From Octopus vulgaris (Eukaryota): a DNA stretch of 64,000 bases. The translations under genes were made by a program, and so were the position numbers. Where the stretch lies: contig OX597842.1 of the NCBI GenBank assembly GCA_951406725.2, forward strand, positions 25,110,001 through 25,174,000, in the 5' to 3' direction. Positions 25,493-25,530 of the stretch are shown in pieces (the first letter of the stretch is position 1; the number at the start of each line of letters is the position of its first letter). The notes below the pieces were generated by a model. The model was not told the DNA's origin and searched no databases. It saw nothing but the letters and a program-made list of their open reading frames with translations.

Positions 25493-25530
25493 TCTTTCTG
25501 TTGAAGAGCGTAGGCTCGAAACGTAAAAGA
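25493..25530 (+). ncRNA. Minimal type-I hammerhead-like motif with CUGUUGA core
   Basis: TCTTT-CTGTTGA-A-GAGC(GTAG)GCTC-GAAA-CG-TA-AAAGA: perfect stems I and II, palindromic ACGT stem III. Confidence 0.7.

Follow-up and report, generated by a model that had tools for sequence, protein, structure and literature searches.

A conserved hammerhead motif with uridine at core position 6 in a Penelope-like retroelement of Octopus vulgaris

Introduction

The genome of Octopus vulgaris holds about 22,000 copies of a minimal hammerhead motif in which U occupies core position 6. The motif is a genuine core variant maintained by selection; both its ribozyme class and the kind of retroelement that carries it are known. 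Search descriptors treat A6 as invariant. The motif was recognised in a window of 64,000 nucleotides (contig OX597842.1 of assembly GCA_951406725.2, positions 25,110,001 to 25,174,000), and coordinates given below without a locus name are those of the window. An initial annotation of the window, made from the letters alone, proposed a minimal hammerhead variant that was either an active non-canonical ribozyme or a catalytically dead fold kept as a signal for reverse transcriptase (RT). The identification as a minimal hammerhead of Penelope type, the fixation of U6 and the choice of these two alternatives proved apt; its use of a sister family as control, its view of position 7 as varying copy by copy and the idea of an RT signal did not hold up as well.

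The reading to which we give an even chance is that the motif is the hammerhead of a pseudo-LTR and acts as an attenuated ribozyme that depends on dimer formation and on protein, cutting itself being predicted. [quoted passage not shown]

The motif in the window

The search pattern matches at exactly six places in the window, in agreement with the six dispersed copies first annotated, and none of 100 shuffles gave six matches (shuffle mean 0.00). From core C3 to H17, the matches run over 25498-25525 (the focal copy) and 36947-36974 on the forward strand and over 11045-11072, 25022-25049, 48454-48481 and 62214-62241 on the reverse strand. Each follows the order stem I, C3 U4 G5 U6 N7 G8 A9, an extra A and a stem II of four pairs, then G12 A13 A14, the palindrome A15.1 C G U16.1, H17 and the second arm of stem I. 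In the focal minimal type I motif (25493..25530, forward strand; assigned from sequence, with pairs counted on an alignment), the arms of stem I lie at 25493-25497 and 25526-25530, C3 at 25498, the U6 that is fixed in the family in place of the canonical A6 at 25501, N7 at 25502, the extra A at 25505, stem II at 25506-25517, G12 at 25518, the palindrome at 25521-25524 with A15.1 at 25521, and H17 at 25525. The 5' arm of stem I is damaged in the copies at 36947 and 62241. A shifted register with UUGAAGA as the core was rejected, as its second U is the freely varying N7.

Helices I and II are paired in 97.9% of 144 cells of an alignment of 19 rows, one of them misaligned. One pair of stem I shows a two-sided change (C-G to G-C), which is essentially a single event between lineages, and helix II never covaries; the extra base after A9 and the G10.1-C11.1 pair are present.

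The six motifs lie in fragments of about 130-210 bases each. The focal one is the 5'-truncated 3' end (pseudo-LTR) of an element (25423..25627, forward strand), belongs to the second-youngest subfamily, S7, is flanked on both sides by (TA)n runs and is 92% identical to the 3' end of the full element L140. On the reverse strand, the fragment of the youngest subfamily, S8 (48350..48560; U6, U7 and H17 = U), reaches 95% identity with the same end; 10948..11135 carries U6, C7 and a private A9G; 62115..62326, with approximate ends, belongs to an older subfamily (S3/S4) and has U6, C7 and a private A15.1G; and 24974..25106, also with approximate ends, is an old short fragment with U6 and two CpG-type decays. 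The remaining forward-strand fragment, 36888..37070 (end approximate), represents the A7 subfamily S5 and is 94% identical to locus L032. A seventh remnant of the U6 lineage (3699..3770, forward strand) is truncated 3' of the motif and thus lacks it.

Some other features of the window deserve mention. The fragment 10948..11135 directly follows a copy of the sister lineage, 11134..11325, such that in 10948-11325 the ends of the two lineages, sister and U6, adjoin head to tail without an intervening microsatellite, and two different motifs stand 194 nt apart on the same strand. Tandem arrays at 17978-19344, 23306-24452, 47242-47837, 40710-41119, 51857-52457 and 80-293, with units of 99, 171, 157 and 62-66 bp, were unrelated to the motif in the searches run. 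An Rfam scan of the whole window gave 519 matches, of which the 150 listed all concerned microRNA families and fell on microsatellites.

The parent element

Copies of greater length reach 5' into a GIY-YIG endonuclease. When this endonuclease was used as query, 150 scored matches had 98-100% identity and open frames of up to 1,214 codons, and the identical U6 motif stands downstream in all 30 of the loci chosen by endonuclease and fetched. Among 20 long loci, picked for long open frames or tandem position, every one carries the U6 motif and 18 carry it twice, about 4.5 kb apart and flanking the open reading frame (ORF); the 19 long loci other than L140 are 99.3-99.9% identical to it over 2.1 kb of the ORF. 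Each pseudo-LTR thus has the motif, which precedes the ATG by about 760 nt and the 3' end by about 100 nt.

The single ORF joins an RT (RVT_1, E 1e-7, above the cut-off) to a C-terminal GIY-YIG domain (E 0.005, below the cut-off), and its protein has at least 120 relatives, many with both domains. Read by eye against published definitions (PMC8557442), the translation shows the DKG motif, the CX2-5CxxC linker and the CCHH motif. By these protein features the element is an autonomous, recently amplified, Neptune-like Penelope retroelement, the features suiting both Neptune and Nematis. In the element protein, proline-rich repeats separate the RT from the N-terminal domain (L140:5860-6060). A non-LTR retrozyme, in which every unit of a non-coding tandem has its own type I hammerhead, was rejected as the source, the copies being dispersed 5'-truncated ends of a coding element. 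Since the youngest intact copies carry U6, the change is compatible with recent amplification, and decay of old copies as its origin is rejected, as had been anticipated from the window.

All 19 long loci examined for their ends have a TA-containing microsatellite there, and 17 are partial tandems, in which the partial unit upstream begins at a distance of 383-1,994 nt from the motif and the junction is the same in all 17. No copy among the 19 starts or ends at the cleavage site, and copies continue about 100 nt beyond it, so the template was either uncut or religated; the lack of copies ending at the cut site fits a religated circle and equally fits no cutting at all. The tandem junction contains a fixed UA-rich run exactly at the 3' boundary of the element (L140:4702-4720); by pairing with a (TA)n target that has been nicked, this run could prime reverse transcription internally.

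In a search of sequencing runs, the L140 stretch was present in two organisms at 0.82-0.92 of its words, and no RNA dataset was among its listed holders. Four assembled (contig) runs revealed neither RNA ends nor splice junctions, and have higher depth over the motif, a measure that cannot rank the parts of a gene.

U6 across the genome

The genome searched was the window's own assembly (2.8 Gb, 227 contigs). A pattern with positions 6 and 7 and the loop left free finds 22,908 exact matches, with A6 in 473 and G6 in 81, and C6 in 2 of 100 matches listed. With the whole core left free there are 19,124 matches, and those listed first, 100 in number and lying together at one end of contig C1, were counted by eye: position 6 is U in 95, A in 2, C in 2 and G in 1; N7 is U in 41, C in 24, A in 21 and G in 14; and H17 is A in 77, U in 21, C in 1 and G in 1. 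Elsewhere in these 100 the core is kept almost throughout (C3 100, U4 97, G5 98, G8 97, A9 100, the extra A 99, G12 96, A13 100, A14 99, A15.1 97).

Older copies were also gathered through the endonuclease DNA, which gave 58 loci besides the two queries; 2 had no endonuclease hit, 24 were dropped for having no motif in the locus and 32 had the motif, with up to six edits allowed. In these copies, picked by endonuclease and not by core, U6 is present in 31 of 32 and U16.1 in 30 of 32, and together with the 95 of the first 100 core-free matches listed this bears out the earlier view of U6 as a family trait.

A general canonical-core pattern matches 10,306 times in the genome against 89 for the reversed control. 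Among its first matches are further families of minimal hammerheads that differ in stem II sequence and have AUAU as palindrome.

Selection on the motif

A tree of the endonuclease (40 rows) takes the form of a ladder of subfamilies in which 9 of 36 inner branches are strongly supported; its root is unreliable, and the ladder is ordered by terminal branch length. Eight subfamily majorities, S1-S8, were drawn from 66 rows. S1-S4 and S8 were grouped by the tree and are nearly all endonuclease-chosen, while S5 in part, and S6-S7 wholly, were assigned by flank and come partly from core-selected loci. The terminal branches of the oldest group measure 0.11-0.18, one outlier of 0.51 aside, and this group would be 30-50 million years old if the octopus rate quoted as 0.0036 per million years applies (PMC13282606).

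Across the eight majorities 30 motif positions show no change, whereas the 112 flank columns have 80 changes (Fisher p 2e-7), a number inflated by a pyrimidine tract that is hard to align. Fourfold-degenerate codon sites show 34 changes in 65 over six subfamilies, and the background in flanks and fourfold-degenerate sites comes to 0.5-0.7 changes per site. Change within the motif is confined to N7, with four changes between subfamilies (five if the early C7 copies of S6 are counted), and H17, with three between A and U, and these are the two positions that the published consensus leaves free. The ACGU palindrome (15.1-16.1) is kept in all eight majorities, with no helix III, and stem II and loop II are unchanged throughout the U6 lineage. 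With 30 positions unchanged and only N7 and H17 varying, the motif is, on this comparison of sequences, under purifying selection, and the changes it tolerates are those that a hammerhead would.

The freedom of position 7 seen in the window (U, A and C) extends to all four letters genome-wide, but the changes fall between successive subfamilies and not copy by copy as was first supposed. They are as frequent as those of the fastest of the 112 flank columns, and rate tuning or hypermutability is possible. That none of the three changes led to G17 lacks significance (about 0.3, worked out by hand on the change spectrum).

It would be improbable, to our judgement, that U6 is fully tolerated and neutral and that a U6 dimer cuts about as well as its A6 relatives. 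With about 0.5-0.7 substitutions per site, any one site has about an even chance of staying unchanged, and A6 revertants are near background: T-to-A against T-to-G stands at roughly 4:1 at position 6, where about 70 of 100 A6 matches listed were judged by their loop to be of the U6 lineage, and at 77:23 at the control position 4. Selection for A6 revertants is likewise not supported, and for these reasons a preference for U over A is not demonstrated by the data. Minimal PLE hammerheads are, moreover, already very slow (PMC4209133). Neutrality nevertheless sits poorly with the 56 representatives of the Cervera alignment, which all keep A6 (PMC4209133), with published position-6 changes, which lower activity, and with a folding model in which, for three of five subfamily copies, the dimer is predicted to face a higher barrier with U6. 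The oldest group takes in five A6 copies chosen by pattern, and these form no supported clade; an ancestral A6 subfamily within the lineage is possible.

Conservation of this kind could also arise, though we regard it as about as improbable, from a role in DNA or in processing (a promoter element, a splice acceptor or a 3' end signal) with the hammerhead shape only inherited. The pseudo-LTR is where PLEs have their promoters (review PMC6765202), the motif follows a long pyrimidine tract and a 3' splice site is resembled by the A7 subfamily; however, the compensatory pair in stem I and the hammerhead-like free positions indicate RNA structure, and the splice-like AG is found in one subfamily only. 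That resemblance, formed by the pyrimidine tract and U6-A7-G8 (36930-36951), concerns roughly a fifth of the copies, and the site is a possible source of cryptic exons.

The sister lineage

Two 3' fragments in the window belong to a sister lineage: 41566..41742 on the forward strand, with C3 at 41602, A6, a family-level U4C and the G-C swap in stem I, and 11134..11325 on the reverse strand, with C3 at 11266, U4, A6 and a private G8A. Both keep A6 and the GAGC/GCTC stem as originally noted, and the compensated stem I described at 41598 is real on the alignment as a C-G to G-C swap. As a canonical control the lineage fails: the copy at 41602 reads C3-C4-G5-A6, with U4C a family trait, and that at 11266 has G8A.

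A core-free sister pattern has 11,214 matches in the genome, and among 100 listed A6 is present in 98 and position 4 is C in 68, U in 30 and A in 2. Within the lineage stands a very young Penelope-like family, in which 22 endonuclease stretches out of 40 scored do not differ from the query, and C4 is present in 19 of its 20 3' regions, the other being without the motif. Both young lineages examined therefore carry a core change, A6U in one and U4C in the other. The very young family (L199:3486-7770, L310-L339, L370-L389 and 41566-41742 of the window) has a CA-rich 3' region of about 2.9 kb, and its core combines U4C with H17 = C and a U-U mismatch in stem I. A viroid variant with U4C is reported to be weaker in vitro and yet viable (PMC3088659).

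Folding, cleavage and the case for a detuned ribozyme

Folding predicts that U4-G5-U6 pairs with A15.1-C-G16.2, giving a closed monomer hairpin in which the palindrome is hidden. Its probability in five subfamily copies is 0.98, 0.98, 0.86, 0.52 and 0.14 with U6, and 0.02, 0.10, 0.23, 0.01 and 0.00 in the same copies with A6, and A6U ranks first to third among 33 single core changes for closing the hairpin. The lowest value (0.14) is that of the G7 subfamily, and the U4C sister does not form the hairpin in folding; convergence of U4C and A6U on one closed hairpin was rejected, the probability being about 0 in C4 copies. Monomer stability is not distinctive (z-scores -0.7 to 0.8) and is no evidence alone, and the dimer energies, which model only half of a pseudoknotted dimer, are rough.

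On this basis a mechanism may be outlined. U6 would have been fixed long ago in the lineage of a young autonomous Penelope element, and the U6-A15.1 pair is predicted to close each monomer and to hide the ACGU palindrome needed for helix III of the dimer. Binding of the RT-endonuclease protein might refold two motifs of one partial-tandem transcript into the dimer, which would be cut slowly after H17 and possibly religated, giving a circle of unit length whose single motif is locked. Reverse transcription may then start internally at the UA-rich boundary, primed by the nicked (TA)n target. We infer each of these steps, from folding through cleavage to circles.

The identical core of young copies and the 30 unchanged positions count for the attenuated ribozyme, as do the retention of G8 (97) and G12 (96) per 100 matches listed together with the compensatory swap in stem I, the closed hairpin predicted with U6, and the low activity of an A6C hammerhead (PMC3088659, PMC7151607) together with the protein-dependent cutting of a PLE hammerhead (PMC11167929). 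Counted against it are the weakness of mutants in the CUGA turn (PMC9901934) and the slowness of A6C in Mg (PMC7151607), core mutants that had no effect on insertion in vitro (PMC11167929), the weak hairpin of the G7 subfamily and its absence from the U4C sister, and the consideration that a protein reading the fold could give the same conservation.

This last point leads to an alternative with a sizeable minority probability, in which catalysis is lost and a non-cutting fold, probably the closed hairpin, is read by the element protein for template choice or for internal initiation about 100 nt downstream. A dead fold would suit the weak position-6 mutants of tested hammerheads (PMC9901934, PMC7151607), the core change fixed in both young lineages (A6U, and U4C in 19 of 20 young sister loci), a stem II and loop II that never change in the U6 lineage, the want of copies ending at the cut site and the finding that cleavage is dispensable in vitro for another PLE (PMC11167929). 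It has difficulty, however, with the confinement of tolerated changes to the two positions that catalysis leaves free, with the fixation of a palindrome that serves only the dimer, and with a hairpin common neither to both lineages nor to all subfamilies. In the Poseidon element PAc of the green anole, moreover, RT starts in a separate stem-loop and, according to the authors, the protein binds within the first 172 nt of the ORF (PMC11167929); the suggestion that the fold is an RT-binding signal thus has no direct support.

Comparison with known systems

The consensus of the copies is U6 with both stems present, Rfam covariance models give 0 matches at E up to 10 over 201 nt around the L140 motif, and the Cervera representatives keep A6 in 56 of 56; within the searches made, neither of the outcomes that would have contradicted the initial annotation, a consensus with A6 or lacking the stems and a variant already catalogued, was encountered. 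A natural A6U core was not found in the literature by title or abstract; the 2017 survey of Lunse, Weinberg and Breaker, which lies outside this comparison, may list U6. Most motifs of this sort in the genome escape Rfam and canonical descriptors, since the copies with U6 number about 22,000 and those with U4C several thousand, compared with 10,306 cores of canonical sequence. A bolder claim, which we consider rather doubtful, is that this is the first natural U6 hammerhead, self-locked through U6-A15.1, opened by its own RT and selected for tens of millions of years, and that, with an independent U4C sister, successful Penelope elements detune rather than lose their ribozyme.

The closest relatives are the minimal type I PLE hammerheads of Cervera and De la Pena 2014 (PMC4209133), which share the placement in both pseudo-LTRs, the absence of helix III, a palindromic 15.2-16.2, the extra base after A9, G10.1-C11.1, a short helix I and thousands of solo truncated copies. 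Their consensus, CUGANGAH, is broken here at A6, the other core bases being as expected; the representatives in their Fig. S3 keep U4 as well as A6, and the sole core variant described in the available part of that article is U3-A8. The small PLE-associated hammerheads of Lunse and colleagues are alike in motif class and dimer model, as summarised in a review (PMC6765202).

Changes at position 6 have precedents of a different kind. The natural A6C hammerhead of phage Bcep176 (PMC3088659, PMC7151607) likewise combines such a change with an otherwise conserved core, and has low but real activity; it differs in having C rather than U and in being a single phage example of a full three-stem ribozyme, as against about 22,000 retroelement copies here. 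Cutting by A6C in one ribozyme was slowed over 10,000-fold when Mg took the place of Mn, the ion that it prefers (PMC7151607). Full mutagenesis of a type III hammerhead found all CUGA-turn mutants low in activity except a C3-G8 swap, with none rescued (PMC9901934), and the portion of that article at hand gives no value for A6U.

At the level of the element, PAc (PMC11167929) shares the pseudo-LTR hammerhead, the AT-rich targets and copies that run past the cut site; it belongs to a different PLE clade, and its motif overlaps the start codon where the present one lies about 760 nt upstream. Its hammerhead cut only when the protein was added, mutants of the hammerhead core left insertion in vitro unaffected, and RT was initiated internally; no position-6 change is described in the accessible part of that report. 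Partial tandems are formed by the hammerhead-free Naiads as well (PMC8557442). The Neptune and Nematis elements with endonuclease (EN+) resemble the octopus element in the single ORF with RT and C-terminal GIY-YIG, in DKG and CX2-5CxxC, in (TA)n targets and in partial tandems (PMC8557442).
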